IMG/VR virus record: IMGVR_UViG_2563366958_000011
Strand: one strand, 5' to 3'
Length of the DNA stretch: 14,993 bases
Source: a virus
Taxonomy: Duplodnaviria > Heunggongvirae > Uroviricota > Caudoviricetes
Position numbers and translations under genes: made by a program. Positions 2,825-14,993 of this stretch are shown here, in pieces (the first letter of the stretch is position 1; each line of letters opens with the position of its first letter). Below the pieces are notes generated by a model. The model had not been told where the DNA came from, did no database searches, and saw only the letters and a program-made list of their open reading frames with translations.

Positions 2825-2890
2825 AACAACTGGACAAGTATACAGAGGTTTACTAAAGTATAAGGGAGTAGATTGATAAAAACTCACAGA

Positions 2891-3220
2891 GGATTGCTAT
2901 TTAACAGTTAGCCATGGAGAAGGGCAATCGCTCTTTTAACAACGAAGATGGAATCTTCTACGCAGCTGAAAAGCTGGATGCTCTTTAACAGCCTTTGGTG
3001 CTTTTCTGATGCAGGAAAGAATAGGGATACATGCACCTTTACAATGCATGTAATGATTCATCCATGAGGCTGCGGAGCGCTGACAAAGCGCAATTGCTCT
3101 TTAACATTGATGTGGGCGGGATGGTTCGTCCCGCAGTGACCGATAGATTTCTATCGGGAAACATACAATGATTCAAATATGAATCTACGGCGCTGACAAA
3201 GCGCAATTGCTCTCTTGCCT
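2891..3220. repeat. intergenic repeat/palindrome array: five GCTnTTTAACA-like motifs, an imperfect ~111-bp tandem duplication and several perfect palindromes
   Basis: Motifs near 2891-2907, 2922-2943, 2977-2993, 3088-3109 and 3199-3220. Exact 24-mer gcgctgacaaagcgcaattgctct at 3077-3100 and 3188-3211. Palindromes gcggga-N7-tcccgc at 3115-3133, cgataga-ttt-ctatcg region at 3140-3157, gattca-aata-tgaatc at 3170-3185. Confidence 0.6.
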
Positions 3221-3475
3221 GCCCACCATGCCCTGAAAAAGGGCGTTCTTTAAAACTACTGGATGTCACGCCTAATAGCGTGATCCTGCCGAAATGCAGG
3301 GTAGCTCTACCCTTGTGGAGCAAACAAACCAAAACAATCTGACTATCTTTTATAAAAGACCGCAATATGTTTTTCATATTGTGGTCTTTGGCGTATTCGA
3401 CATTTGACGCAAATAAAACTCTCGCCATTCGTTGCAGGAGGGGGTTATTGCGTCATTAGTACAGGATATTAATAA

Positions 3476-3679
3476 ATGGCTAATTACAATTCATTAATTC
3501 GTCTCTCTGAAGTTCAAAGGCGAACTGGTTATAGCAAAGCATGGATTTATCGTCTTATTAGTCAGGGGAGGTTCCCTAAACAGGTAAAAATTGGAAGTCG
3601 GGCAATTGCTTTTGTTGAGTCTGAAATAGATGAATGGATTGAGAAGTGTATATTAGAATCTAGAGACGAGGTGGCCTGA
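3476..3679 (+). CDS. alpA: AlpA-family phage/island transcriptional regulator (excisionase-like HTH), 67 aa
   Basis: Sequence LIRLSEVQRRTGYSKAWIYRLISQGRFPKQVKIGSRAIAFVESEIDEWI matches the AlpA/prophage regulatory protein pattern (HTH then a conserved W/E tail). AGGA about 10 nt upstream of the ATG. Confidence 0.85.
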   Translation: MANYNSLIRLSEVQRRTGYSKAWIYRLISQGRFPKQVKIGSRAIAFVESEIDEWIEKCILESRDEVA

Positions 3680-4122: not shown

Positions 4123-4956
4123 ATGAACATCGAAAAAAGCAGATTAATTTCTGAGGCCGCCCCTCATCTGAACGCCTCTCTGGGCACAATTAACGGTAAT
4201 GAATTTGCCGCAATTGTCCCGGTTATTCCTGGTCATATCGGTGGGCGTGAAACCAATATTGTTAGCGCAAAAGCGTTACACAAAGCGTTGGGCGTGGGAA
4301 AAGACTTCTCTACATGGATCACTGATCGCATCTCTGAATATGACTTCACCATTGGGCACGATTACTCAGTCCATAAAACAATTTCCCCAAATTTGGGGAA
4401 AAGCCCGAATGGCGCGGCTTACAGCAAGATAAAGCACTCTGGCAGACCCGGCAAAGACTATCTGTTAAGTGTCGGAATGGCGAAAGAACTGGCAATGATC
4501 GAACGCAATGATCAGGGTCGCGCTATCCGCCGTTATTTCATCCAGTGCGAGGAAGAATTACAGCGTAGCGTTCCTGAAATCGCCGCCCGCTATCGTCGCC
4601 AGCTAAAAGCCCGTCTCAGTGCCGCAAACAACTTTAAGCCAATGTGCGATGCGCTGAATATGGCCCGTGCCGAGATGGGTAAAACGACGCAGCAACACCA
4701 CTACACAAACGAGAGCAATATGATTTCTCGTATCGTTCTTGGTGGGCTAACTGCTAAGCAGTGGGCGCGGATAAATGGCTATTCTGGCGAACCTCGCGAC
4801 CATATGAACGCAGAACAGCTTGAGCACCTCTCATATCTCGAAAGCACCAATATCACGTTAATTGATATGGGCATGGAATATGAGCAGCGCAAAGGAGAAC
4901 TCACCCGCCTGTCGCAACGCTGGCTCGCCAAGCGTCTGGAGGCGGTCCATGTTTAA
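4123..4956 (+). CDS. phage antirepressor-like protein (AntA/AntB-type N-terminal region), 277 aa
   Basis: GGAG SD 7 nt upstream. Segment SAKALHKALGVGKDFSTWITDRISEYDFTIGHDY and following LSVGMAKELAMIERNDQGRAIRRYFIQCEEEL resemble the AntA/AntB antirepressor N-terminal domain as I remember it. C-terminal 130 aa unassigned. Confidence 0.6.
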   Translation: MNIEKSRLISEAAPHLNASLGTINGNEFAAIVPVIPGHIGGRETNIVSAKALHKALGVGKDFSTWITDRISEYDFTIGHDYSVHKTISPNLGKSPNGAAYSKIKHSGRPGKDYLLSVGMAKELAMIERNDQGRAIRRYFIQCEEELQRSVPEIAARYRRQLKARLSAANNFKPMCDALNMARAEMGKTTQQHHYTNESNMISRIVLGGLTAKQWARINGYSGEPRDHMNAEQLEHLSYLESTNITLIDMGMEYEQRKGELTRLSQRWLAKRLEAVHV

Positions 4957-5131
4957 GCCGACAGGAACACCACAACCTCAAAAACGCTACAAAGATGCCC
5001 ACGGAGCACTCGTTACTGTCGAAAGCGTGTCTCACAACCGAGTGACGTTTTATCGCGACGGGTATCAATCGCCATGCGTACAACCGCTGGCGCGCTTCAT
5101 GAAGGAGTTCGCGGAGGTTAACAAATGCTAA
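4949..5131 (+). CDS. small hypothetical protein, 60 aa
   Basis: ATG at 4949 with GGAGG at 4938-4942. Start overlaps the upstream stop (ATGTTTAA). Its stop overlaps the next start. Confidence 0.5.
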   Translation: MFKPTGTPQPQKRYKDAHGALVTVESVSHNRVTFYRDGYQSPCVQPLARFMKEFAEVNKC

Positions 5132-5598
5132 CCGTCCAGAAGAAGATATTTTCACTGGCTGGTATGTCACCAAAATCCAGCAATATGACAGCAAAGTCTG
5201 GCATTAATACAGCAGATACAAGCAAAGTTTATCATTTTCTGGTGGTAGGAGCGGATGCCTTAACTATGTCAGAAATTACGGTCGATGGTGTTAGCGTTGA
5301 GAAGGTCAGCGGCTGCGCCAGAGAATTTCTGGTCGTAGATGGCTTTCTCTGCTCGCGTAGTGACTCCACAAAAACCTTCGTCCATACGCGCGACGTTAAC
5401 GAAATGAGCGCGATGTATTGTGCATCTGGTGCTTCCAATACTGAGTTTTCGGAGTCCATAAAAAAGAGCTTGCCGTTATGCGGCAACACGGTTTATGGTT
5501 ATAAGGCACCTCATAAAACGGGTGCCGGGATTGGCGTCCTGAAAATTCTGAAGGCGACATATGACGCGCCGGGTGATGCTGCCAACTTACTGATTTAG
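5125..5598 (+). CDS. hypothetical protein; last 8 codons and stop are supplied by the IS1 left end, so the native 3' end is interrupted
   Basis: ATG 5125 with GGAGG at 5113-5117, coupled to the upstream gene (ATGCTAA). Frame enters IS1 at 5572 and terminates at the IS1 TAG (5596-5598). Native C-terminus unknown. Confidence 0.5.
5563..5571. repeat. IS1 target-site duplication, left copy (GACGCGCCG)
   Basis: The identical 9-mer recurs immediately after the IS1 right end at 6340-6348. Confidence 0.9.
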
Positions 5599-5626
5599 TG
5601 TATGATGGTGTTTTTGAGGTGCTCCA

Positions 5627-5902
5627 GTGGCTTCTGTTTCTATCAGCTGTCCCTCCTGTTCAGCTACTGACGGGGTGGTGCGTAACGGCAAAAGCACCGC
5701 CGGACATCAGCGCTATCTCTGCTCTCACTGCCGTAAAACATGGCAACTGCAGTTCACTTACACCGCTTCTCAACCCGGTACGCACCAGAAAATCATTGAT
5801 ATGGCCATGAATGGCGTTGGATGCCGGGCAACAGCCCGCATTATGGGCGTTGGCCTCAACACGATTTTACGTCACTTAAAAAACTCAGGCCGCAGTCGGT
5901 AA
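5627..5902 (+). CDS. insA: IS1 InsA (zinc-finger transposition regulator), 91 aa
   Basis: [22 protein letters not shown]...CSHC zinc-finger N-terminus; canonical InsA. Confidence 0.95.
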
Positions 5903-6324
5903 CCTCGCGCATACAGCCGGGCAGTGACGTCATCGTCTGCGCGGAAATGGACGAACAGTGGGGCTATGTCGGGGCTAAATCGCGCCAGCGCTGGCTGTTT
6001 TACGCGTATGACAGGCTCCGGAAGACGGTTGTTGCGCACGTATTCGGTGAACGCACTATGGCGACGCTGGGGCGTCTTATGAGCCTGCTGTCACCCTTTG
6101 ACGTGGTGATATGGATGACGGATGGCTGGCCGCTGTATGAATCCCGCCTGAAGGGAAAGCTGCACGTAATCAGCAAGCGATATACGCAGCGAATTGAGCG
6201 GCATAACCTGAATCTGAGGCAGCACCTGGCACGGCTGGGACGGAAGTCGCTGTCGTTCTCAAAATCGGTGGAGCTGCATGACAAAGTCATCGGGCATTAT
6301 CTGAACATAAAACACTATCAATAA
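5821..6324 (+). CDS. insB: IS1 InsB frame (transposase made as an InsAB' fusion by -1 frameshift at the A6C site)
   Basis: ORF in the -1 frame relative to insA, overlapping its 3' end. AAAAAAC slippery motif at 5878-5884. Coordinates are from the first in-frame ATG of the ORF track. Confidence 0.9.
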
Positions 6325-6339
6325 GTTGGAGTCATTACC

Positions 6340-6348
6340 GACGCGCCG
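6340..6348. repeat. IS1 target-site duplication, right copy (GACGCGCCG)
   Basis: Exact 9-bp match to 5563-5571, directly abutting the IS1 right terminus. Confidence 0.9.
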
Positions 6349-6361
6349 AGCGTCTTTTTTT
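6340..6361 (+). terminator. putative intrinsic terminator (GACGC-GCCGA-GCGTC hairpin plus T7), into whose stem IS1 inserted
   Basis: 5-bp stem, 5-nt loop, then TTTTTTT at 6355-6361. The TSD equals the 5' arm and loop of the hairpin. The stem is short, so confidence is modest. Confidence 0.4.
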
Positions 6362-6369
6362 ATGTCGTA

Positions 6370-6408
6370 GGTCTGACTCACCCATTTTTTGGGCGTTGGT
6401 GTATAATC
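6370..6408 (+). promoter_or_regulatory. putative promoter of the small-gene/primase operon (consensus -10 TATAAT at 6402-6407)
   Basis: Perfect TATAAT hexamer about 160 nt upstream of the first SD-preceded gene. No convincing -35 identified. Confidence 0.35.
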
Positions 6409-6563
6409 CAGCGCCTTTGTCAATCAATGGTGGCTCAGGCGGGGGCTTCTTCGGAAGCGCCGGTATCCTTCAGAGCCGGTTACGCCAACCCTGTCTGGGC
6501 TACCACCAGCGAAATTGGCGTTTCCGGTGGTAGCGTAACCTGCTATCTGAAGGAGGCTGCCAC
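6409..6563 (+). promoter_or_regulatory. structured 5' leader (possible regulatory RNA) upstream of the first small gene
   Basis: Hairpin gcttc-UUCG-gaagc at 6445-6458 and a 9-bp stem gctaccacc/ggtggtagc at 6499-6507 and 6526-6534 with an 18-nt loop. Ends at the AGGAGG SD (6551-6556). Confidence 0.3.
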
Positions 6564-6758
6564 ATGCTGGCTACTACCCCTACCCAAAAACCGCAATTTA
6601 TCTGGATTATCGCCGCAGTTCGCCGCGATTGCCCGACAATTACCGCCAAAATTCATCATATTGCTGCCGAGTCTGAACGCGATGCTCGCCGTTCTCTGGT
6701 GCGCGATCACGTCTGCTTTTTTGCTGGTCGTATCCGCATGGAGGTGGCACATGATTAA
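6564..6758 (+). CDS. small hypothetical protein, 64 aa (first gene of coupled operon)
   Basis: AGGAGG 7 nt upstream of ATG 6564. Stop overlaps the next start (ATGATTAA). Confidence 0.65.
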   Translation: MLATTPTQKPQFIWIIAAVRRDCPTITAKIHHIAAESERDARRSLVRDHVCFFAGRIRMEVAHD

Positions 6759-6969
6759 AACCTACGATGTGCATATGGATCCCCTCGAACGCACAAGCCA
6801 GATCATCACACTGACAGAAGTGATTAACGACATTCTGGTGAGCAACTCTCCCTCACGAGACGAAAGGCTGAAGGCGTTACTCGCGATATTGGATCTCGCC
6901 GTTCGTGACGTTCATTTCCTGCTGGAAGGTGGCGAAATGCCAGGAAAAACGGGGGCAACCAATGAATAA
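6751..6969 (+). CDS. small hypothetical protein, 72 aa
   Basis: GGAGG at 6740-6744, 6 nt before ATG 6751. This is the C-terminal part of track ORF 6427-6969; the short start is preferred because of the SD and the start/stop overlap. Confidence 0.65.
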   Translation: MIKTYDVHMDPLERTSQIITLTEVINDILVSNSPSRDERLKALLAILDLAVRDVHFLLEGGEMPGKTGATNE

Positions 6970-7156
6970 CTCAATTAATACCCCTCGCCTTACGTCCGCA
7001 CTTCAATTAATCGAGCAAGCAGCGGCTGTCCTGGTTGCTGTCAGTCTTTCGGCTGAAGAAATGGACGCTGCTGATGTCGTGGATGCGATTAAAGCGTGCT
7101 CATCTTTGGTTAACGATGCCCGTGCCGAGCTGGTAATTCTTGGGGGTGAAAAATGA
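6962..7156 (+). CDS. small hypothetical protein, 64 aa
   Basis: ATG 6962 overlaps the upstream stop (ATGAATAA). An internal start of track ORF 6905-7156 was chosen to avoid a 60-nt overlap with the upstream gene. Confidence 0.6.
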   Translation: MNNSINTPRLTSALQLIEQAAAVLVAVSLSAEEMDAADVVDAIKACSSLVNDARAELVILGGEK

Positions 7157-7416
7157 ATATCAACTTAATTTATCGTCATCCGTGTGAGCTGGAAATTGAA
7201 TCATTGCTGGGGCGTGAAGAGCCATATCCAGACTCATTCACTCCCGCAGATTGCGCGACTGAACGGCTTACCAGAGCGCGCACAGGTCTGGTTCATGTGA
7301 TGAATGAGATTGTTCCCTCGGTGGGAGGGGAACAGGCGACAGTAATCAATAGCTGGCTACAAAAAGTTACCTCCCTGATAGATATCGGTTTAATCGATGT
7401 GGAGAGTGCGAAATGA
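7153..7416 (+). CDS. hypothetical protein, 87 aa
   Basis: ATGA start/stop overlap with the upstream gene. Uninterrupted ORF. Confidence 0.65.
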   Translation: MNINLIYRHPCELEIESLLGREEPYPDSFTPADCATERLTRARTGLVHVMNEIVPSVGGEQATVINSWLQKVTSLIDIGLIDVESAK

Positions 7417-7634
7417 CCAACATCCAGCTCATTGAAGCGCAATGTCGCATCGAACAGGTTCAGACTGTTTTAGGGTTCTGGCTTGAAGGGGCCAGCCCCA
7501 GCAACAGAGACAAGTTAATGATTGGCGCGGTTATGTCACTGCTCAATGGCGTACCAGAAGCTATTCAGGAAGCGGACGAATTGTTGGGCAAATATGAGTT
7601 ACAGAATCATTCAGGCGAGGCGAAACATGAATAA
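7413..7634 (+). CDS. hypothetical protein, 73 aa
   Basis: ATGA overlap with the upstream gene. Uninterrupted ORF. Confidence 0.65.
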   Translation: MTNIQLIEAQCRIEQVQTVLGFWLEGASPSNRDKLMIGAVMSLLNGVPEAIQEADELLGKYELQNHSGEAKHE

Positions 7635-8229
7635 TTTCTTAACTTTCCATGCAGAAGCAACGCCTGACGGCGTAAACATCATGTACCGCAGCAACGATGG
7701 CATGACAGAACGCGTTGAGGCCGTCTCATATATTGATGCCGTAAATCGTCTGGATGCCGGGGATTATGACGATAAACCAGATGAAGGTATGTCAATACAT
7801 CTCGCTATTGCCGATGGCGGCAACCAGGGATATTTCGATTACACATCACAGCATAACGTCATTATGTGGAGATGGCTGATCGCAACAGTATTCATGCTGG
7901 AAATGAGAGAGGAAAACGGCACTGTCAGCATCATTGATGATACTGGCAATCCTTCCGAAGTGGCTGTTTATTCCAACGGCATCGTCGCCATGCCGCTGTA
8001 TCCAGTAGCAGAGCGCCTCGCTATGGCAAACAACATTGAGGGCGCGATGATAGAACGTTTTGGCATCGAGTCTGGCACAGAACGCGCCATCATTTTCTAC
8101 AGAGCCATGATGGATGTGGAACAAGGAGCACTGACTCCATTTGGTCGTGAAACGCTTGCTGAACTTCACAACAGCTTTATAGCTGAACTGAATGAAAACG
8201 GCATGCCAGCGGAACCAGTGACGCACTGA
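7627..8229 (+). CDS. hypothetical protein, 200 aa
   Basis: ATG 7627 overlaps the upstream stop (ATGAATAA). The longer track ORF from 7522 would overlap the previous gene by 112 nt, so the coupled start is preferred. Confidence 0.6.
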   Translation: MNNFLTFHAEATPDGVNIMYRSNDGMTERVEAVSYIDAVNRLDAGDYDDKPDEGMSIHLAIADGGNQGYFDYTSQHNVIMWRWLIATVFMLEMREENGTVSIIDDTGNPSEVAVYSNGIVAMPLYPVAERLAMANNIEGAMIERFGIESGTERAIIFYRAMMDVEQGALTPFGRETLAELHNSFIAELNENGMPAEPVTH

Positions 8230-8239
8230 GGATGGAGCC

Positions 8240-8581
8240 ATGATTACTAAAAATTTCCGACTGAATGCGCTGGCAAATAAGTATGCGTCGGCACTGTATA
8301 ACCACATTACCTCCACCAGCGGCGGGGACTATTTCATGGTTGATGCGGACGGCGAGGCCGTACGTGTGGAAATCGTCAATGGAGTAAAAGGCGTTCGCAG
8401 CCTGATCGATAGCTACACACTGGCAGCCATGAAAGTGTTCTACCCGCAGTGGGAAACCGTGGGGATCGAGCTTCTTGAGCGTTGCGTCACTAAGGACGGA
8501 TTGACTGACGTCGGGCGTGAGATATGGCAAAGCATGGTTAATGACATGGGCGCAACTGTAGCGGGAGGTTCTCATGCGTGA
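8240..8581 (+). CDS. hypothetical protein, 113 aa
   Basis: GAGG at 8228-8231, 8 nt before ATG 8240. Stop overlaps the next start. Confidence 0.65.
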   Translation: MITKNFRLNALANKYASALYNHITSTSGGDYFMVDADGEAVRVEIVNGVKGVRSLIDSYTLAAMKVFYPQWETVGIELLERCVTKDGLTDVGREIWQSMVNDMGATVAGGSHA

Positions 8582-8945
8582 AAATGCAGAAATGGCGCTT
8601 AGCTCCGCAATCGGAGAGCAGGTGGCAAAGATTGCTGGTGCTGTGTGGATTCATAACCTTCATTCTACTGGTGAAGAGAAAATGGCAATTCAGACGCCAG
8701 AGGGACGCACCATTACTACATCTCTGAAGCCGTCAGATGTTTGTGATCTGATTTGCGCATTCATGTACCCAGCAATGAGGACTGTCCACGGCGATAAGTG
8801 GAAACTTGCGACAACCGCTGAATTTGATATGTGGCTAAACAATGATGGCATGCTGACTGATTACGGAATAACCAAGTGGCAGATGCTGGTTAGCCATATC
8901 GCAAACGCTATAGACCACGTGGGGTACGGTGATGCGAAACATTGA
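8574..8945 (+). CDS. hypothetical protein, 123 aa
   Basis: ATGCGTGA overlap with the upstream gene. 3' end overlaps the primase start by 14-17 nt. Confidence 0.65.
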   Translation: MRENAEMALSSAIGEQVAKIAGAVWIHNLHSTGEEKMAIQTPEGRTITTSLKPSDVCDLICAFMYPAMRTVHGDKWKLATTAEFDMWLNNDGMLTDYGITKWQMLVSHIANAIDHVGYGDAKH

Positions 8946-11688
8946 TCTTATCCGTCAGGTTATCAGTGCGTCTGAAAACAACTGGCCTCATGTGCTGGGC
9001 TGCCTGAACATAAATGTCCCTGACTCTCCGCGCCGTCATGCTCCCTGCCCTGCATGTGGGGGCAAAGATCGATTCCGGTTCGATGACAACGGGCGCGGTA
9101 GCTTCATCTGTAATCAGTGCGGCGCTGGTGATGGGCTGGATTTAATTAAACGCGTAAATAACTGCGACACAACAGAGGCGGCGCTTCTTGCCGCTGATGT
9201 TCTGGGTATTGATTACCGGACAACGGAAACACCAGAAGCCACCAGCCAGAAACGGGAACAACTGGAAACCGAGCGCCAGCGACGCGAACAGGAGCGCCTG
9301 AAAAGGGCAGAGAAGGACGAACAACAAAGACGGGATACGTTTTCCCGTCAGTTTGATGACATGCGCAGAAAGGCTGTAAACGGCAAATCTGATTATCTGG
9401 TTGCGAAAGGGGTAGGTGATTTTACATTCCCCGTGTTGCCCGATGGATCTCTGTTGCTGGCGCTGGTGGATAAATCCGGCGCAGTCACAGCAGCACAGAC
9501 TATTACATCACATGGTGAAAAAAGACTCCTGACAGGTTCAGCAAAGCGGGGGGCATATCACGCCATAAACGCGCCAGAAACAACACAGAGCATCTTAATC
9601 GCAGAAGGGCTGGCAACGGCATTATCTGCCCATTTAATTCGTCCAGAGGCGCTGACAGTGGCGGCGATTGATGCCGGGAACCTGTTATATGTCCCCCAGG
9701 TACTGCGGGATAAATTTCCTTCAGCACAAATCATCATTGCTGCGGATAACGACCACAGCGAAGGAAGACAAAACACGGGGAGAATAGCAGCAGAAAAAGC
9801 AGCTTTATCTGTTTCTGGATGGGTGGCATTACCCCCGACAGATCACAAAGCAGACTGGAATGATTACCACCAAAAACACGGCATTAAATGCGCCACAGAA
9901 GCGTTCAATAAGTCAATGTACCAACCACAGGGTAATGGCGTGAAACATGAGCCACAGACCATTGAGGGAAGCGATTTTAAGGTTATGGATACCGACCCAC
10001 TGAAACCAAGAATAGAAAGCCGCGAGGATGGTATTTATTGGGTATCTCCGAGAGCTGACAGCCAGAGTGGAGAAATCATCAATAACGAAAGCTGGTTATG
10101 TTCTCCGTTAAGCGTTATCGGTACTGGCAGAGACGATAAAGACCAGTATCTCATTCTTCGCTGGCTGTCGTTTGGTTCTGAAACGCCGACAACCGCTGCC
10201 ATTCCACTGGCTGATATTGGTGAACGTGAAGGATGGCGCACACTTAAAGCTGGTGGGGTAAATGTCACGACCAAAAGCAGCCTCAGAGCAATACTGGCAG
10301 ACTGGCTACAACGCAGTGGCTCTCGTGAATTGTGGCGTGTTGCTCATGCCACTGGCTGGCAATGCGGAGCGTACATCATGCCTGATGGGGAAATCATCGG
10401 AACACCTGAAAATCCTGTGCTGTTCAGCGGGAGAAGCTCAGCCGCAGCCGGATATACCGTCTCAGGGAGCGCGAAAAGCTGGCGTGATAACGTGGCGCGT
10501 CTGGCCTTTGGTAACTATTCAATGATGACCGGGATCGGCGCAGCACTGGCAGCGCCATTGATTGGGCTGGTGGGCGCTGACGGGTTCGGCATTCATTTCT
10601 ATGAGCAGTCGAGCGCAGGTAAGACCACCACGGCAAACGTGGCGAGCAGCTTATACGGCAACCCTGATTTACTGCGGCTGACGTGGTACGGAACCGCGCT
10701 GGGGCTGGCAAATGAGGCCGCCGCCCACAATGACGGACTAATGCCGCTTGATGAAGTTGGTCAGGGCGCTGATCCTGTCAGCGTTTCACAGTCTGCCTAT
10801 GCGTTATTTAACGGTGTAGGGAAACTGCAAGGCGCTAAAGATGGTGGAAACCGGGATCTAAAACGCTGGCGTACAGTGGCAATCAGCACCGGAGAAATGG
10901 ATTTAGAAACATTTATCGCTACTTCCGGGCGAAAAACCAAAGCCGGGCAACTGGTGCGACTGCTGAATATTCCGTTGAGTAAAGCAGTACGCTTTCACGA
11001 TTACCAGAACGGAAAACAGCACGCAGACGCACTGAAAGACGCTTACCAGCATCACCACGGCGCGTCCGGGCGTGAGTGGATTAAATGGCTGGCAGACCAC
11101 CAGCAACAGGCTATTAAAACCGTTCGTGACTGCGAAAGCAGATGGAGAAGCCTGATCCCATCCGATTATGGTGAGCAGGTTCACCGTGTAGCCGCGCGAT
11201 TTGCCATTCTGGAGGCCGCATTGTTGTTAGGCGAGGTTGTAACAGGCTGGGATGCTCAGACATGCCGTGATGCGATACAGCACAGCTATAACGCATGGTT
11301 GCGCGAGTTCGGCACAGGTAACAAAGAGCATCAGCAGATTATTGAACAAACGGAGGCATTTCTTAATGCCTATGGGCTTAGCCGTTTTGCACCATTTCCA
11401 TACAGCCCGGCAGATTTGCCCATCAAAGATTTAGCCGGATACCGTCAGCGTGGAGAACATGACGAAAGCCCAATGATTTTCTACACATTCCCGGCCACAT
11501 TTGAAAAGGAGATCGCATGTGGTTTCAACGCAAAACAGTTTGCTGAAGTGTTGAAAAAAGCCGGGATGCTAACCCCACCAAACAGCGGTCGTGGATACCA
11601 AAGAAAATCACCACGTATTCAGGGACGACAAATAAACGTTTATGTACTCAATTACCAGCCAGGAGATTATAACTCATCTGAAGAATGA
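8929..11688 (+). CDS. DNA primase-helicase (P4 alpha-like): zinc-ribbon + TOPRIM primase + Walker-type NTPase, 919 aa
   Basis: N-terminal CPACGG...RFRFDD...CNQCG zinc ribbon. TOPRIM-like motifs ILIAEG and IIAADNDHSEG. C-terminal Walker A-like QSSAGKTT and Walker B-like MPLDEVGQ. Track start is GTG 8929; ATG 8932 is the likelier start. Confidence 0.9.
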   Translation: MMRNIDLIRQVISASENNWPHVLGCLNINVPDSPRRHAPCPACGGKDRFRFDDNGRGSFICNQCGAGDGLDLIKRVNNCDTTEAALLAADVLGIDYRTTETPEATSQKREQLETERQRREQERLKRAEKDEQQRRDTFSRQFDDMRRKAVNGKSDYLVAKGVGDFTFPVLPDGSLLLALVDKSGAVTAAQTITSHGEKRLLTGSAKRGAYHAINAPETTQSILIAEGLATALSAHLIRPEALTVAAIDAGNLLYVPQVLRDKFPSAQIIIAADNDHSEGRQNTGRIAAEKAALSVSGWVALPPTDHKADWNDYHQKHGIKCATEAFNKSMYQPQGNGVKHEPQTIEGSDFKVMDTDPLKPRIESREDGIYWVSPRADSQSGEIINNESWLCSPLSVIGTGRDDKDQYLILRWLSFGSETPTTAAIPLADIGEREGWRTLKAGGVNVTTKSSLRAILADWLQRSGSRELWRVAHATGWQCGAYIMPDGEIIGTPENPVLFSGRSSAAAGYTVSGSAKSWRDNVARLAFGNYSMMTGIGAALAAPLIGLVGADGFGIHFYEQSSAGKTTTANVASSLYGNPDLLRLTWYGTALGLANEAAAHNDGLMPLDEVGQGADPVSVSQSAYALFNGVGKLQGAKDGGNRDLKRWRTVAISTGEMDLETFIATSGRKTKAGQLVRLLNIPLSKAVRFHDYQNGKQHADALKDAYQHHHGASGREWIKWLADHQQQAIKTVRDCESRWRSLIPSDYGEQVHRVAARFAILEAALLLGEVVTGWDAQTCRDAIQHSYNAWLREFGTGNKEHQQIIEQTEAFLNAYGLSRFAPFPYSPADLPIKDLAGYRQRGEHDESPMIFYTFPATFEKEIACGFNAKQFAEVLKKAGMLTPPNSGRGYQRKSPRIQGRQINVYVLNYQPGDYNSSEE

Positions 11689-12451: not shown

Positions 12452-12808
12452 ATGGAACTAAAATTTATTGATAACCCTGTGCGATTACAGGCCTTTCTTA
12501 ACGAGCCAGGCAATACCGAAAATATTGTTGAGCCGGGGCACACGTACTACATCAAGCCTGATGCGGTATATCTCGGCATCTACGAAGGATTAGTGCTGGC
12601 TGGCGTTCATGAAGTGCGTAACTTCTGGCATAGCGTTGTTGAATGCCATGCGGTGTACGACCCCGGATTCCGTGGTGAATATGCACTGCAAGGACATCGA
12701 TTATTCTGCAAATGGCTTCTCGAAAACTCACCATTCCTTAACAGCATTACCATGGTTCCTGACACCACGAAATACGGACGGGCAATTATCCGTTTGCTTG
12801 GCGGGTGA
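12452..12808 (+). CDS. hypothetical protein, 3' end truncated by IS1 copy 2 (stop codon lies inside the IS1 left end)
   Basis: ORF begins 17 nt after the RHH-like gene. TGA at 12806-12808 belongs to the IS1 terminus GGTGATG, so the native C-terminus is missing. Confidence 0.55.
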   Translation: MELKFIDNPVRLQAFLNEPGNTENIVEPGHTYYIKPDAVYLGIYEGLVLAGVHEVRNFWHSVVECHAVYDPGFRGEYALQGHRLFCKWLLENSPFLNSITMVPDTTKYGRAIIRLLGG

Positions 12809-12858
12809 TGCTGCCAACTTACTGATTTAGTGTATGATGGTGTTTTTGAGGTGCTCCA

Positions 12859-13134
12859 GTGGCTTCTGTTTCTATCAGCTGTCCCTCCTGTTCAGCTACT
12901 GACGGGGTGGTGCGTAACGGCAAAAGCACCGCCGGACATCAGCGCTATCTCTGCTCTCACTGCCGTAAAACATGGCAACTGCAGTTCACTTACACCGCTT
13001 CTCAACCCGGTACGCACCAGAAAATCATTGATATGGCCATGAATGGCGTTGGATGCCGGGCAACAGCCCGCATTATGGGCGTTGGCCTCAACACGATTTT
13101 ACGTCACTTAAAAAACTCAGGCCGCAGTCGGTAA
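12859..13134 (+). CDS. insA: IS1 InsA, copy 2
   Basis: Translation identical to copy 1 InsA. Confidence 0.95.
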
Positions 13135-13556
13135 CCTCGCGCATACAGCCGGGCAGTGACGTCATCGTCTGCGCGGAAATGGACGAACAGTGGGGCTATG
13201 TCGGGGCTAAATCGCGCCAGCGCTGGCTGTTTTACGCGTATGACAGGCTCCGGAAGACGGTTGTTGCGCACGTATTCGGTGAACGCACTATGGCGACGCT
13301 GGGGCGTCTTATGAGCCTGCTGTCACCCTTTGACGTGGTGATATGGATGACGGATGGCTGGCCGCTGTATGAATCCCGCCTGAAGGGAAAGCTGCACGTA
13401 ATCAGCAAGCGATATACGCAGCGAATTGAGCGGCATAACCTGAATCTGAGGCAGCACCTGGCACGGCTGGGACGGAAGTCGCTGTCGTTCTCAAAATCGG
13501 TGGAGCTGCATGACAAAGTCATCGGGCATTATCTGAACATAAAACACTATCAATAA
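13053..13556 (+). CDS. insB: IS1 InsB frame, copy 2
   Basis: Translation identical to copy 1 InsB. Confidence 0.9.
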
Positions 13557-13566
13557 GTTGGAGTCA

Positions 13567-14316
13567 TTACCCAAATGCCGCAGCCCCCTCTGGATCCGCC
13601 TTTAACATTTGCGCGTATTGATTGTAATTCTGCATTGCGGCTGTTGGTGCATATGCTGACGTTAACGCATTTGCTCGGCTAATATCCTGCCCTCTCGCCT
13701 GAAGTGCTTCTCCGGCTTGATTGCTGCGGATCGTCTCTGCCAACTTGCCACGCTCAATATCCCGACCTTCCATTCGATCTTTGATATCGAAGTACTTCTC
13801 ATGACCGAGAGAAAACAGTGCCATACTACCAGCAAGCCGCTGGAATCCCTGTGGATCATTAACATGCATTTCGGCAACAGACTCAGGAGAAATTCCCAAA
13901 CGACGCATTTCATCTTCGTTATCTGCTATGAATTTTCCAAATGCCCCAGTTCCGAGCGAAGATGCGATTTGAGCACTAGTCGCAAGATGACCAATAGAAT
14001 TTCTCTGGTCGTCATCAATAAAGCCCATCCCTTTCTGAACGCTTTCAAATTCTTCTGGATACTCAGAAATAAGACTGCGCATTTTGTTTCTGTCTCCAGA
14101 CTCAAAAGCCCCGGCATATGCTTTCTGAAACTCTGCTTTACGCTGTTGTTGACGTGCCTGCTGATTAATCTCAGCAACGCCTCTTAGCCCCTGTAGCGCC
14201 ATTAAACCTACGTTTGGCTGCTGCTGATACTGCACAGGCTGAGGAACGGAAGAACGAGGAGCATTATCATTTTGCGGTGCCATGCTAGGCAGCCCGCCAA
14301 GTTGCCATGTCGCCAT
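13567..14316 (-). CDS. hypothetical Gln/Pro-rich protein, 249 aa; stop codon supplied by the IS1 right terminus, so probably C-terminally truncated
   Basis: Minus-strand ORF whose TAA (13567-13569) lies inside the IS1 end sequence. Start overlaps the upstream gene by 1 nt (TAATG), indicating an operon. Confidence 0.6.
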   Translation of the reverse strand: MATWQLGGLPSMAPQNDNAPRSSVPQPVQYQQQPNVGLMALQGLRGVAEINQQARQQQRKAEFQKAYAGAFESGDRNKMRSLISEYPEEFESVQKGMGFIDDDQRNSIGHLATSAQIASSLGTGAFGKFIADNEDEMRRLGISPESVAEMHVNDPQGFQRLAGSMALFSLGHEKYFDIKDRMEGRDIERGKLAETIRSNQAGEALQARGQDISRANALTSAYAPTAAMQNYNQYAQMLKADPEGAAAFG

Positions 14317-14993
14317 TAGAATCCAAGCCCCCCAACAAGACCAATAAGCCCACCACCAATAGCCCCGGCGACATTACCTATACCCGGAACAACGGAACCA
14401 AGTTGCGCACCCGCTAAAGCGCCTGATGCCGCCCCACCAATACCACGCGCAAGACTGGATGGCTGCTGCGCCTGACCTGCACGAATAGCGCCAAGCCCCT
14501 GCAAGAGTTGTCCGGTATTATTGGCGTAGTTTTGCCCTGCTGTTGCCTGCCCTGATGCCGCATTCATCCCGACATTTAGCAGGTTTCCATAATTTTGCAT
14601 TTGCCCACTGAGCCAATTGTTATAAAGCATGGGCGCAATGGAAGATAACTGGTTACTGGTAGCTGTTGAGCCAAGCCCCCCGGTAGCTTCTGCTGAGACA
14701 AGGTTCTGATAACGGGCCTGATCTGCCTGTGTTTTATATAAACCAGAACCAAAGAAATCATTCGCGGCTTTATTCTGCCCTTCCAGAGTCATCAGTCCTT
14801 GTAGTTGTTGTAAAGCAGGCAATCCGACTTCTGCATACGGCTTGAGATTATTCATCACCGTATTCCACTGCTCGCGCTGCAAATCAATTGCCTGCTGCTG
14901 GGCCTTCGCCTGAGCTTTAGAGGCACCACCATCACCGCCTTTTTCGTATACGGCACGATTGAGATGTTTATAAGCTATATGGGTAATTAACAT
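14316..14993 (-). CDS. hypothetical Gln/Asn/Gly-rich protein with a C-terminal glycine-zipper hydrophobic segment; N-terminus may lie beyond the window edge
   Basis: Minus-strand ORF reaching the window end. C-terminus GIGGAASGALAGAQLGSVVPGIGNVAGAIGGGLIGLVGGLGF looks like a membrane-inserting glycine zipper. Possibly a phage ejection or structural protein, or a bacteriocin-like protein; family not recognised. Confidence 0.55.
   Translation of the reverse strand: MLITHIAYKHLNRAVYEKGGDGGASKAQAKAQQQAIDLQREQWNTVMNNLKPYAEVGLPALQQLQGLMTLEGQNKAANDFFGSGLYKTQADQARYQNLVSAEATGGLGSTATSNQLSSIAPMLYNNWLSGQMQNYGNLLNVGMNAASGQATAGQNYANNTGQLLQGLGAIRAGQAQQPSSLARGIGGAASGALAGAQLGSVVPGIGNVAGAIGGGLIGLVGGLGF

Follow-up and report, generated by a model that had tools for sequence, protein, structure and literature searches.

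What is the meaning of a long open reading frame (ORF) that runs, in another phase, across the whole of a small gene with an SD motif of its own? The question is posed by positions 6564-8945 of the IMG/VR record IMGVR_UViG_2563366958_000011 (here, the window is the entire 14,993-nucleotide stretch of this Caudoviricetes DNA that was analysed), where eight small genes are chained into a primase gene. The first-pass annotation, made from the sequence alone, took the frame to be either a product of chance or a true overlapping gene. We arrive at a different answer, to which we assign a probability of about 0.7, namely, that the small genes form a P4-type, RNA-switched early operon and that the long frame is a read-through ORF of the P4 eta type broken by an IS1 insertion.

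The satellite island and its chain of overlapping genes

The window carries an island at tRNA-Thr (thrW) that is a satellite of the Gram-negative PICI/P4 type, and 6564-8945 is its immunity-controlled early (replication) operon. The island consists, in order, of int (1610-2824, facing inward), alpA (3476-3679), a Bro-type zone, the small genes, the primase and, 3' of the latter, captured P22-like late genes (DUF2824, gp7 and gp20), and all four zones of the Gram-negative PICIs (int with AlpA, Bro, primase, late) are present in the window in this order. Upstream of the C4 region described below lie an AntA-type gene (4123-4956) and a DUF4222 gene (4949-5131, + strand; Pfam PF13973, 87 bits). 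[quoted passage not shown] Among the window proteins scanned, none matched PF25738, Psu or Delta, and the P4-like-satellite markers in the window are limited to int, AlpA, a DUF927 primase and one match to PF10554 (Phage_ASH), a family that has also served as the epsilon marker in finding P4-like satellites. The island in the window is damaged by two IS1 elements.

The start/stop junctions, the SD motifs and the long frame-1 ORF were all found as described in the first-pass annotation. Successive genes meet at ATGATTAA (genes 1/2, 6751-6758), ATGAATAA (genes 2/3, 6962-6969), ATGA (genes 3/4, 7153-7156), ATGA (genes 4/5, 7413-7416), ATGAATAA again (genes 5/6, 7627-7634) and ATGCGTGA (genes 7/8, 8574-8581), and gene 8 overlaps the primase gene by 14 nt (ATG 8932) or 17 nt (GTG 8929). 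The sole non-overlapping junction, passed over earlier, is that of genes 6 and 7, a 10-nt gap with GGAG. Purine-rich SD motifs are located 5-10 nt 5' of every start, not only of most starts. The chain does not begin at 6564, as had been supposed, but runs back upstream to alpA at 3476 through further overlaps, ATGA at 3679, ATGTTTAA at 4949-4956 and ATGCTAA at 5125-5131.

Gene 1 (6564-6758, + strand, 64 aa), the first translated gene of the immunity-controlled operon, matches the NCBIfam profile NF033153 (phage_ICD_like) along its full length (positions 1-48 of 48) with 71.7 bits, compared with a cut-off of 25, and aligns with P4 Kil at 42% identity (alignment A1). By these matches, the gene 1 product is homologous to both Kil of P4 and Icd of P1, and the previous statement that none of the eight proteins was recognisable is wrong in its case; the predicted role is that of a Kil/Icd-like inhibitor of host cell division. 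The remaining genes, all on the + strand, are less familiar. Gene 2 (6751-6969, 72 aa) lies in the frame of the long ORF and shows a pN/pS of 0.18 in its own frame; gene 3 (6962-7156, 64 aa) is present only in Escherichia alleles, with few substitutions; and gene 4 (7153-7416, 87 aa) has syntenic homologues with 38-53% identity in other genera. Gene 5 (7413-7634, 73 aa) belongs with phrog_20558 (E 2.9e-9; homologues at 33-53%) and gene 6 (7627-8229, 200 aa; pN/pS 0.32) with phrog_1515 (E 5.7e-47; 550 homologues). The C-terminal part of gene 6 weakly resembles P4 ORF106 (DUF5375; hhalign probability 20%, E 0.0011), and its AlphaFold2 model is unusable (pLDDT 52). Gene 7 (8240-8581, 113 aa; phrog_37628, E 1.2e-49) is likely a distant paralogue of gene 8, judging from a comparison with the gene 8 family (hhalign probability 51%, E 1.6e-4, 93 columns). 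For gene 8 (8574-8945, 123 aa; 21 homologues), a helix, a beta-hairpin and two further helices are predicted (AlphaFold2, pLDDT 87.8), and a Foldseek search with this model gave no fold match (best E 0.55). The last gene of the chain encodes a primase-helicase (8932-11688, + strand) with a zinc ribbon, Toprim and DUF927 (Pfam), which was found in 19 of the 19 related loci at 47-81% identity.

An RNA switch upstream of gene 1

The long frame crosses an element that the first-pass annotation overlooked, an 88-nt gene for a C4/CI-type antisense immunity RNA at 6423-6510 on the + strand (Rfam RF01695, 79.9 bits against a gathering score of 45, E 1.1e-14, model positions 1-87 of 87). Across 47 distinct relatives, 17 of the 28 base pairs of this RNA show compensatory changes. 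A C4 match lies about 140 nt 5' of icd, the counterpart of gene 1, in all 18 relatives searched, and an isrK match is found in 17 of them; L003, the nearest relative, whose size kept it out of that search, carries both.

The isrK/seqA-like leader occupies 5506-5571 (+ strand) and contains the upstream C4 targets a1 (5531-5537) and b1 (5547-5554). In the window, IS1 stands in place of the terminator, and the match to RF01394 (isrK/P4 seqA leader) consequently reaches 42.3 bits, short of the gathering score of 50; in the IS1-free allele, the score is 67.8 bits (L001:6918-6995), and therefore the ancestral element belongs to RF01394, and the window copy is a disrupted member. The terminator hairpin, GACGCGCCGAGCGTC followed by a T-run (6340-6361, + strand), is regenerated 3' of IS1 by the target duplication; on the intact allele, the terminator scan places it at L001:6975-6989, at the 3' end of the isrK model. 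Upstream of the leader, a putative -35 hexamer TTGCCG (5470-5475) and a -10 hexamer TATGGT (5494-5499), separated by an 18-nt spacer, suggest a constitutive leader promoter at 5470-5499 (+ strand) equivalent to P4 PLE, in which the hexamers at the equivalent position are TTGCCT and TATAGT. A strict promoter scan did not list 5470-5499; the transcription start predicted from the hexamers is near 5506, where the isrK model likewise begins.

The downstream C4 targets (6515-6556, + strand) comprise a2 (6515-6521), a segment at 6533-6540 and b2 (6546-6554), the last of which overlaps the SD motif of gene 1 (GGAGG, 6552-6556). The C4 loop at 6466-6474 is exactly complementary to 6546-6554 and to 5547-5554, and the C4 stretch at 6482-6488 to 6515-6521 and 5531-5537; both target pairs thus have exact complements of 7-9 nt, and the 3' pair extends over the ribosome site of gene 1. 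Cognate loop/target duplexes have predicted energies of -30 to -43 kcal/mol compared with means of -21 to -32 kcal/mol for non-cognate ones. In most of 21 loci the cognate duplex is the best or tied with a few alleles, several of which have an identical loop and target, and in 10 of the 21 no non-cognate duplex matches the cognate one. At the sequence level, loop and target covary across the relatives, and the architecture of the switch (leader, two target pairs, terminator, C4 RNA) is shown.

From their counterparts in P4, P1 and Gifsy-1, we infer RNA processing, termination and translation of the long ORF in the island. A leader transcript starting from about 5470-5499 would contain a1/b1, the intrinsic terminator and the 88-nt C4/CI-type RNA, followed by a2/b2. 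As in P1 c4-icd-ant and P4 cI-kil, the processed C4 RNA would pair with its targets, stop translation of gene 1 and cause premature termination, and the coupled chain down to the primase would therefore be off in the resting state. The start/stop overlaps would hand ribosomes on from each gene to the next, and thus the first ribosome site would decide for the whole chain.

In the window, this switch is broken by IS1 (768 bp, 5572-6339, + strand), which is flanked by a 9-bp target duplication, GACGCGCCG, at 5563-5571 and 6340-6348. The insertion divides both the leader terminator hairpin and the long ORF, and it separates C4 and the operon from the proposed promoter, a1/b1 and the terminator. 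The window copy is probably regulatorily dead. The IS1 junction does not occur in any of 5,426 complete E. coli genomes.

The long frame and its conservation

The 5' part of the long ORF comprises 149 codons (5125-5571, + strand), after which IS1 interrupts it between two codons; as annotated, the 157-codon ORF runs on into IS1 and ends there at 5598. Its start has an SD motif, GGAGG, 7 nt upstream, and the ATG at 5125 overlaps the TAA stop of the DUF4222 gene (5129-5131, ATGCTAA), the upstream coupling partner. The 3' part, previously noted as the long open alternative frame and indeed open from 6349 to 6969 (+ strand, 206 codons and a stop), runs through the C4 gene and a2/b2, passes over the whole of gene 1 in its +1 frame and then continues in the frame of gene 2 to the stop that both share. 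When IS1 and one copy of the duplication are removed, the frame is continuous with the 157-codon ORF, as noted before, and the two join exactly at the codon boundary to give a 355-codon ORF from 5125. The ORF is intact in an IS1-free E. coli strain, where PGAP annotates it as a single gene for a 355-aa ash family protein.

By the comparison of its layout with that of P4, the long frame is shown to be the equivalent of P4 eta: its start, coupled to the preceding gene, lies 5' of the proposed promoter, which falls inside the ORF, and one open frame spans this promoter, the leader, the RNA gene and the targets, with the same phase at the C4 start (+1) in P4 and in 81 of 81 loci. By analogy with P4, translation of the ORF would require induced transcripts whose start lies farther 5', towards alpA. 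The translating ribosomes would prevent RNA folding or pairing and protect the transcript from termination, and therefore induced transcription would ignore immunity. Unlike P4 eta, the ORF here is not in frame with kil but in the +1 frame of icd (spacing of 141 vs 142 nt). What is new in this lineage is the spacer 5' of the gene 1 ATG, 1 nt shorter, which places the ORF, without stops, over the entire gene 1 and on to the gene 2 stop. The two halves of phrog_6928 are matched separately, profile positions 34-149 by the long ORF and 138-194 by gene 1, and therefore the halves of an Eta-type protein lie in different frames here.

Among the 81 distinct relatives, the frame is open through icd in all, from at least 207 nt 5' of icd to the icd stop; 37 loci have the P4 arrangement, with the frame in phase with icd, 44 have it in the +1 frame, as here, and none has it in the +2 frame. 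Over about 290 nt, from 150 nt 5' of the C4 gene to the icd start, 80 of the 81 loci have no stop in the equivalent frame, and, summed over all loci, this frame carries 2 stops and the remaining two carry 405 and 242. In the +1 class, 44 of 44 loci have no stop in the +1 frame of icd, compared with 9 of 37 loci of the in-frame class. When the +1 class is clustered at 10% divergence or more, all 11 clusters are open vs 4.5 expected (joint P 4e-6, without phylogenetic control; per-locus chance of an open +1 frame, 0.03-0.66), and tight linkage of the 1-nt spacer difference to icd means that the lineages in these tests are not independent. Homologues of gene 2 (39-45%) were found only in loci of the +1 class (L012, L013 and L017).

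These data bear on the explanations that compete with a read-through ORF. That the frame is open by chance above a genuine small gene, and without biological meaning, might be suspected given that synonymous resampling of this icd allele alone leaves the +1 frame open with a chance of 0.33 and that PGAP sometimes skips the frame, calling Icd and a hypothetical protein; yet the stop counts, the 11 diverged open clusters, and the SD motif and stop overlap at the ORF start make it extremely improbable. Decay of eta, whereby a frameshift inactivated an in-frame Eta-Kil ORF and stops in the +1 frame of icd have not yet been acquired, would agree with the difference from P4 of a single nucleotide between SD and ATG and with the IS1 damage to this island. 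We nevertheless consider it unlikely: the +1 class comprises 44 distinct sequences from several genera, with icd identity down to 68%, none of which has a stop, whereas the +1 stops in the in-frame loci are at 10 different positions, so that stops arise readily in the absence of selection. Furthermore, the two classes intermingle on the icd tree: the 21-locus set requires at least 3 switches between them, and the Fitch estimate for the 81-sequence tree is 12. Of the 44 +1 sequences, 42 have an ORF that extends to the stop of the next gene or past it (in the other two, it ends just past icd).

A third possibility is that the product of the long ORF is an Ash protein or transcriptional repressor whose conserved Phage_ASH domain acts at the protein level, gene 1 being spurious or secondary. 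Amino acids 124-232 of the IS1-free ORF match PF10554 with 117.5 bits, above the gathering score; PGAP names the product accordingly; the PHROG families are labelled transcriptional repressor or regulator; and over the N-terminal 106 codons (5125-5442) pN/pS is 0.38 in the frame of the long ORF vs 1.47 and 0.94 in the other frames. This constraint implies that part of the product may have a protein function. However, the DNA under the PF10554 match is exactly the promoter, the isrK leader, C4, a2/b2 and the start of icd, and therefore the Phage_ASH "domain" appears to be translated regulatory RNA; in this regulatory stretch pN/pS is 0.7-0.9 in every frame, and the changes track RNA pairing. 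The same ORF in P4 is the old "cI/ash" ORF, and the immunity factor there is an RNA (PMC4825925). Across gene 1, which scores above the NCBIfam cut-off, the minimum numbers of substitutions by codon position are 50/36/101, and those in icd of the +1 class are 28/26/67, so that, by this measure, amino-acid constraint exists only in the icd frame. A repressor encoded by the long ORF is thus improbable. Evolutionary support for frame 1 alone (dN/dS), which the first-pass annotation had named as evidence against its small genes, was not observed, because only the icd frame shows codon-position constraint over gene 1. Of the two options originally offered for the overlapping frame, chance is excluded by the comparative data, and a conventional protein gene across gene 1 does not hold either.

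What, then, keeps the P4-eta-type ORF open? The avoidance of stops in whichever frame reaches icd fits, indirectly, with translation that prevents immunity-dependent termination. Given that the +1 peptide over gene 1 appears to be free of amino-acid constraint, selection would preserve the transit of ribosomes rather than this stretch of the product. At even odds, the long ORF is a "ribosome track", kept not for its product but as a stop-free path that leads from the upstream gene over the promoter, the leader, the immunity RNA gene and the entire Kil/Icd gene, in whichever of two frames the spacing sets, with repeated switches between in-frame and +1. If so, the families denoted Phage_ASH, "ash family protein" and "transcriptional repressor" in PHROGs would largely represent a translated regulatory RNA cassette, and about 195 nt of a Kil gene would be read in two frames, only one of them constrained as protein. 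The eta-type interpretation explains two incompatible pipeline annotations of the locus, one 355-aa "ash family protein" vs a pseudogene, an Icd-like protein and a hypothetical protein, and it calls for caution, in that PF10554 matches would mark the RNA immunity cassette and not the P4 epsilon derepressor.

Comparison with known immunity systems

The immI region of P1 and P7 (c4 RNA, icd, ant1/ant2) likewise encodes an RNA of RF01695. In P1, each target of the c4 RNA has two parts (a1/b1 and a2/b2), the 3' target extends over the ribosome-binding site of a gene of the Icd family, and the genes downstream of icd depend on icd translation. We know of no description of a long read-through ORF across c4 in P1. 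The genes that follow differ: in P1, an antirepressor lies downstream, whereas the island has small proteins and the primase there and an AntA-type gene upstream.

In the isrK-orf45-anrP region of Salmonella Gifsy-1, the isrK leader, which carries an intrinsic terminator, precedes STnc1160, a stable C4-like RNA (PMC4825925), an order that resembles that of the island. The same article describes CI/seqA/seqC and shows that orf45 is translated, overlaps the C4-like RNA and is conserved in nucleotide but not in amino-acid sequence; orf45 is coupled to the next gene by AUGA (PMC4825925). The island ORF begins about 380 nt 5' of the leader and extends, out of frame, over the next gene, in contrast to orf45, a short ORF with its start 3' of isrK.

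With the Gram-negative PICIs, for which the portion of PMC10111431 considered here gives the Integration, Bro, Replication and Late zones, the island shares int/AlpA, then AntA, DUF4222 and an eta-type gene with C4/isrK, then the primase, and finally P22-like late genes. That portion of the article places C4 and isrK matches inside Bro-zone genes and does not describe an out-of-frame overlap with a Kil homologue.

The analogy with the genes preceding P4 alpha, drawn in the first-pass annotation, is borne out. The P4 left operon consists of PLE, seqA, the cI RNA, seqC, nested kil/eta, epsilon, orf151, orf106 and alpha, and both the C4 and the isrK matches are present in the P4 sequence. The two elements share, in the same order, an isrK-like leader, a C4/CI RNA about 140 nt 5' of the gene for a Kil/Icd protein of 64-65 aa, and then small genes and a primase; they also share a long ORF that begins on an upstream stop (orf88/alpA in P4) and crosses the promoter, the leader and the RNA gene in the same phase to that gene; and 8-nt start/stop overlaps, which in P4 extend down to orf151 and give way to short gaps before orf106 and alpha. 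They differ in that no homologues of epsilon (PF25738) or orf151 were found in the island and the likeness to orf106 is weak, the primases are 32% identical over part of their length, sid, psu and delta are absent from the window, and the N-terminal extensions of the long ORFs are unrelated. In P4, kil lies in the eta frame and the two share a stop, which makes Kil a C-terminal truncation of Eta, in contrast to the island ORF, which is +1 and ends at the gene 2 stop. According to the account of Forti et al. 1999 in PMC10111431, translation of P4 eta makes induced transcripts insensitive to RNA immunity; the island and its relatives provide a comparative test of an idea shown genetically for P4 alone, namely, that translation across the immunity RNA region, and not the Eta protein, bypasses RNA immunity.

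A coupled gene chain within the island

The window opens with proA (1-1254) and tRNA-Thr(CGT) (1369-1444), after which the island carries, on the plus strand, genes for a tyrosine integrase (1610-2824), an AlpA-family regulator (3476-3679), a 143-aa unknown protein, an AntA-domain protein (4123-4956) and a DUF4222 protein (4949-5131). Then come the region analyzed here, the gene for a zinc-ribbon/Toprim/DUF927 primase (8932-11688, plus strand) and the P22-like late genes DUF2824, gp7 and gp20. Judged from the gene content, the zones follow the Integration, Bro, Replication, Late order that PMC10111431 gives for Gram-negative PICI satellites. The 2.6-kb region of interest is present in 1,158 of the 5,426 complete E. 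coli genomes and is nearly full length in 257. The stretch 2825-3475 contains a 129-codon ORF on the minus strand (3039-3428) without a family match; the int-alpA RNA (RF02996), which 10 related loci carry between int and alpA, gives no hit in the window at a cut-off as loose as E 0.1.

The eight small genes at 6564-8945 are chained into the primase gene as the first-pass annotation described, each of the six overlap junctions that it listed being found in its place. The overlap into the primase gene, put at 14-17 nt, is 14 nt with the ATG at 8932 and 17 nt with the GTG at 8929. The sole junction without overlap is that of genes 6 and 7, a 10-nt gap with GGAG inside. Shine-Dalgarno (SD) motifs had been reported at most starts; a purine-rich SD is present upstream of every one. 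Start/stop overlaps also extend upstream of gene 1 (at 3679, 4949-4956 and 5125-5131), so that the coupled chain starts at alpA. Two sister islands (L023 from 4802 onward and L024 from 4841 onward) share genes 1-6, lack genes 7 and 8 and encode another replication protein (DUF5906); thus, the small-gene chain and the replicase are modular.

The claim that none of the eight small proteins is recognizable has to be given up for gene 1 (6564-6758; icd hereafter), which scores 71.7 bits against the NCBIfam Icd-like cell-division inhibitor model (cut-off 25) and aligns lengthwise with P4 Kil (65 aa). It holds for genes 2-8, which have no Pfam or NCBIfam assignment, no credible match in a PADLOC search for anti-phage defence roles and no direct similarity by tblastn to P4 epsilon, orf151 or orf106. 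Syntenic homologues in other genera are found for genes 4, 5, 6 and 7 (33-78% identity) and, in one case, for gene 8 (54%), and genes 5, 6 and 7 belong to PHROGs of unknown function. The 550 database homologues of gene 6 are all without a name, and its hhalign profile match to P4 ORF106 is weak; no member of its alignment matches Pfam DUF5375, and its AF2 model (pLDDT 52) is too poor for use. Homologues of gene 4 (87 aa, 7153-7416; L023:3713-3976 and L024:3752-4015) are labeled "nicotinic acetylcholine receptor subunit beta" in several RefSeq genomes, an evident name-transfer error.

Descent of genes 2-5 from tandem duplication is unsupported (BLASTP E of at least 0.13, hhalign probability below 1%). 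Genes 7 (8240-8581) and 8 (8574-8945) are probably diverged tandem paralogues, given BLASTP E 8e-4 and an hhalign match over 93 columns (probability 51%, E 1.6e-4). The AF2 model of gene 8 (pLDDT 87.8) consists of a helix, a hairpin and two further helices, and the fold has no match in the PDB (best Foldseek E 0.55). A phmmer search of the PDB with this protein returns polyubiquitin chains at E 3.8e-15, a value that sums nine repeat matches of about 5.5 bits each; a single ubiquitin gives E 0.62, and the local motif GRTITTSLKPSD resembles GKTITLEVEPSD of ubiquitin. We reject a ubiquitin-like identity because the score is a summed-repeat artefact, the AF2 fold is not a beta-grasp and all Foldseek E values are at least 0.55.

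The long frame and the RNA cassette that it crosses

The long open frame starts at 5125, ends at the gene 2 stop (6969) and is interrupted by IS1 (5572-6339), which is flanked by a 9-bp target duplication (5563-5571 and 6340-6348). Its continuity with the upstream ORF, proposed in the first-pass annotation, is borne out: once IS1 and one copy of the duplication are taken out, 149 and 206 codons join exactly at a codon boundary, yielding an ORF of 355 codons. Exactly the same ORF is present in the IS1-free allele of E. coli SCU-172 (NZ_CP054353; L001), where PGAP names it "ash family protein"; in a second strain with the same intact sequence, PGAP calls an "incomplete" pseudogene, an "Icd-like" protein and a hypothetical protein. 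The PGAP calls of the intact ORF are mutually incompatible (L001:6537-7604 versus L002:6825-7604 and L025:2501-3357). A search for exceptions to the open frame among strains with a PGAP ash pseudogene found none, the ORF being intact, with no stop codon in any of them.

Within this frame, at 6423-6510, lies a gene for a C4 antisense RNA (RF01695, the Rfam family that includes the P4 CI RNA; 79.9 bits, gathering score 45). The IS1-free allele has an isrK-type leader (RF01394, homologous to P4 seqA; 67.8 bits) about 60 nt upstream of C4; in the window, where IS1 sits within the terminator hairpin of the leader, the match drops to 42.3 bits. The loop of C4 hairpin 2 (6466-6474, UCCUUCAGA) is the exact complement of 6546-6554 (target b2), which overlaps the SD of gene 1 at 6552-6556, and is also complementary to 5547-5554 (b1) in the upstream leader; the single-stranded stretch after the loop, 6482-6488, has its complements at 6515-6521 (a2) and 5531-5537 (a1). 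Among 47 distinct C4 sequences, compensatory double changes occur in 17 of the 28 predicted pairs, and almost no pair is broken. The loop and tail sequences vary between loci and the targets vary with them, cognate duplexes having energies of -30 to -43 kcal/mol versus means of -21 to -32 kcal/mol for non-cognate ones. Together, the compensatory pairs and the loop/target covariation show that selection acts on the C4 RNA and its targets at the RNA level.

Among the Escherichia alleles compared (L003, L023, L024 and L025), the regulatory stretch 5443-6563 is by far the most diverged segment, with pS of about 0.18 versus 0.013 in the adjoining icd, and at least four loop/target specificities are found beside near-identical icd genes. 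This pattern looks like cassette-like exchange or diversification, under diversifying selection, of immunity specificity.

The same cassette underlies a Pfam match. Pfam Phage_ASH (PF10554) covers aa 124-232 of the long ORF, and the underlying DNA (L001:6906-7232) comprises the proposed promoter, the isrK leader, C4, a2/b2 and the first icd codons. In P4, the profile matches the old "cI/ash" ORF inside eta (L022:4169-4765, minus strand); the P4 epsilon protein proper is PF25738, which has no match among the window proteins. One survey of P4-like satellites took PF10554 as the epsilon marker; since PF10554 maps to the RNA cassette and epsilon is PF25738, the marker picks up the RNA immunity cassette in place of epsilon. 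As read from these coordinates, the Phage_ASH "domain" is a translated regulatory RNA cassette that happens to stay open.

Two reading frames across icd

Relative to C4, the long ORF and the P4 ORF share one phase ("C4 start +1"), and both have a coupled start. The C4-to-icd spacing, however, is 141 nt in the window versus 142 nt in P4, the missing nucleotide lying between the SD and the ATG (GCCAC-ATG versus GCCACC-ATG), and therefore the long ORF enters icd in the +1 frame, remains open across all 64 icd codons and ends at the gene 2 stop. In the PHROG family that includes the P4-type Eta, the long ORF covers profile positions 34-149 and gene 1 positions 138-194, a match that directly shows, at the sequence level, an Eta-type protein split over two frames.

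We distinguish an in-frame class of loci, in which the long ORF is in frame with icd as in P4, and a +1 class, arranged as in the window. Substitutions in icd by codon position are 28/26/67 in the +1 class and 36/26/82 in the in-frame class. In both, most changes fall at the third position, which indicates protein-level constraint on the icd frame but none on the +1 reading that overlaps it. The first-pass annotation considered that conservation might support only the long frame; the codon positions favor the icd frame. The first 106 codons of the long ORF have pN/pS of 0.38 in their own frame versus 0.94 and 1.47 in the others, and the regulatory stretch of the Escherichia alleles has 0.7-0.9 in every frame. 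Genes 2, 6 and 7 have own-frame values of 0.18, 0.32 and 0.12, respectively, and genes 3, 4, 5 and 8 show few substitutions among close alleles; a wrong-frame signal in gene 4 is an artefact of 7 variable sites counted repeatedly.

The overlapping frame, which the first-pass annotation took to be either chance or a true gene, is conserved as an open frame. With the Icd protein, we gathered 19 loci from other Enterobacterales genera and 80 from IMG/VR, and C4 lies about 140 nt upstream of icd in all these relatives. The set analyzed for open frames consists of 101 loci with 81 distinct C4-icd sequences. In all 81, no stop interrupts the frame "C4 start +1" over a span that begins 207 nt or more before icd and reaches the icd stop or beyond; this frame is in frame with icd in 37, in the +1 frame in 44 and in the +2 frame in none. 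Over the roughly 290 nt that separate the icd start from a point 150 nt before C4, the long frame is stop-free in 80 of 81, whereas the other two frames contain 405 and 242 stops in total. Within icd, the +1 frame is stop-free in 44/44 loci of the +1 class versus 9/37 of the in-frame class, where the stops fall at ten different positions (Fisher test between classes, 3e-14, uncorrected); the two classes are interleaved on an icd tree that is short and poorly resolved, and because of this and of the tight linkage of the spacer difference to icd, the open-frame figures are not a proper phylogenetic test.

Chance openness was addressed more strictly by taking one sequence per cluster at a nucleotide divergence of at least 10% and resampling synonymous codons. 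All 11 clusters of the +1 class are open versus 4.5 expected (joint probability 4e-6), as are 8 of 8 at a divergence of at least 15% (P 2e-4); there is no such excess among the in-frame clusters (6 of 18 open versus 3.5 expected). The resampling supports selected openness of the +1 frame less strongly than the Fisher test, but still clearly.

A proposed read-through switch and its counterpart in P4

The sequence comparisons demonstrate the parts and their order, the complementarity of the RNA to targets over the gene 1 ribosome site together with its covariation, the coupled chain and the conserved open frame; the working steps of the switch are modeled on P4, P1 and Gifsy-1. At rest, a leader would be transcribed from a promoter near 5470-5499 and would mostly end at the leader terminator or shortly thereafter. 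The C4 RNA, arising by processing, would pair with a1/b1 and a2/b2 and hide the gene 1 ribosome site; the untranslated transcript would then be exposed to termination, and the chain down to the primase would be silent. Upon induction, transcripts from the alpA side would, through coupling, bring in ribosomes that translate the long ORF, unfolding the leader and the C4 region as they go and covering the RNA through icd. Translation would then pass to genes 2-3 and those after them, so that the replication genes could be expressed despite immunity. The requirement would be ribosome transit rather than a product, which fits both the two usable frames and the unconstrained peptide across icd.

In the window, everything upstream of IS1 (promoter, a1/b1 and the initial 149 codons) is cut off from the remainder, and a terminator hairpin has been regenerated shortly before C4. 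This IS1 junction is found in 0 of 5,426 complete E. coli genomes. A second IS1 (12804-13571) truncates the DUF2824 gene at 12803, and the sequence past it (13572-14993, with P22-type gp20 and gp7 genes on the minus strand) is inverted relative to SCU-172, corresponding to L001:14953-13532, a pattern that points to an inversion mediated by IS1, perhaps accompanied by a deletion. The island in the window is probably a decaying copy.

The open alternative frame seen in the first-pass annotation is thus real, and it is a conserved eta-type read-through ORF that IS1 has broken in the window. The proposed analogy with the genes preceding alpha in P4 was right and can be made precise, as P4 carries both RNA families (C4 and isrK) and an ORF of the eta layout. 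The P4 ORF, in the phase "C4 start +1", starts on the stop of orf88 (an alpA homologue), crosses the PLE promoter, seqA, the cI RNA and seqC, and ends as Kil; this ORF is eta. PMC10111431, citing Forti et al. 1999, states that P4 Eta is translatable solely from the late promoter upstream, that translating it averts the RNA-dependent termination by which transcripts from the internal constitutive promoter are halted, and that the internal transcript yields the truncated form, Kil. Unlike P4 eta, the ORF of the window enters icd in the +1 frame and ends at the gene 2 stop. Such out-of-frame nesting of eta and kil, and evidence for the avoidance of stops in whichever frame reaches kil, appear not to have been described before. 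The arrangement in the window is a variant of the known P4-type mechanism rather than a new kind of system.
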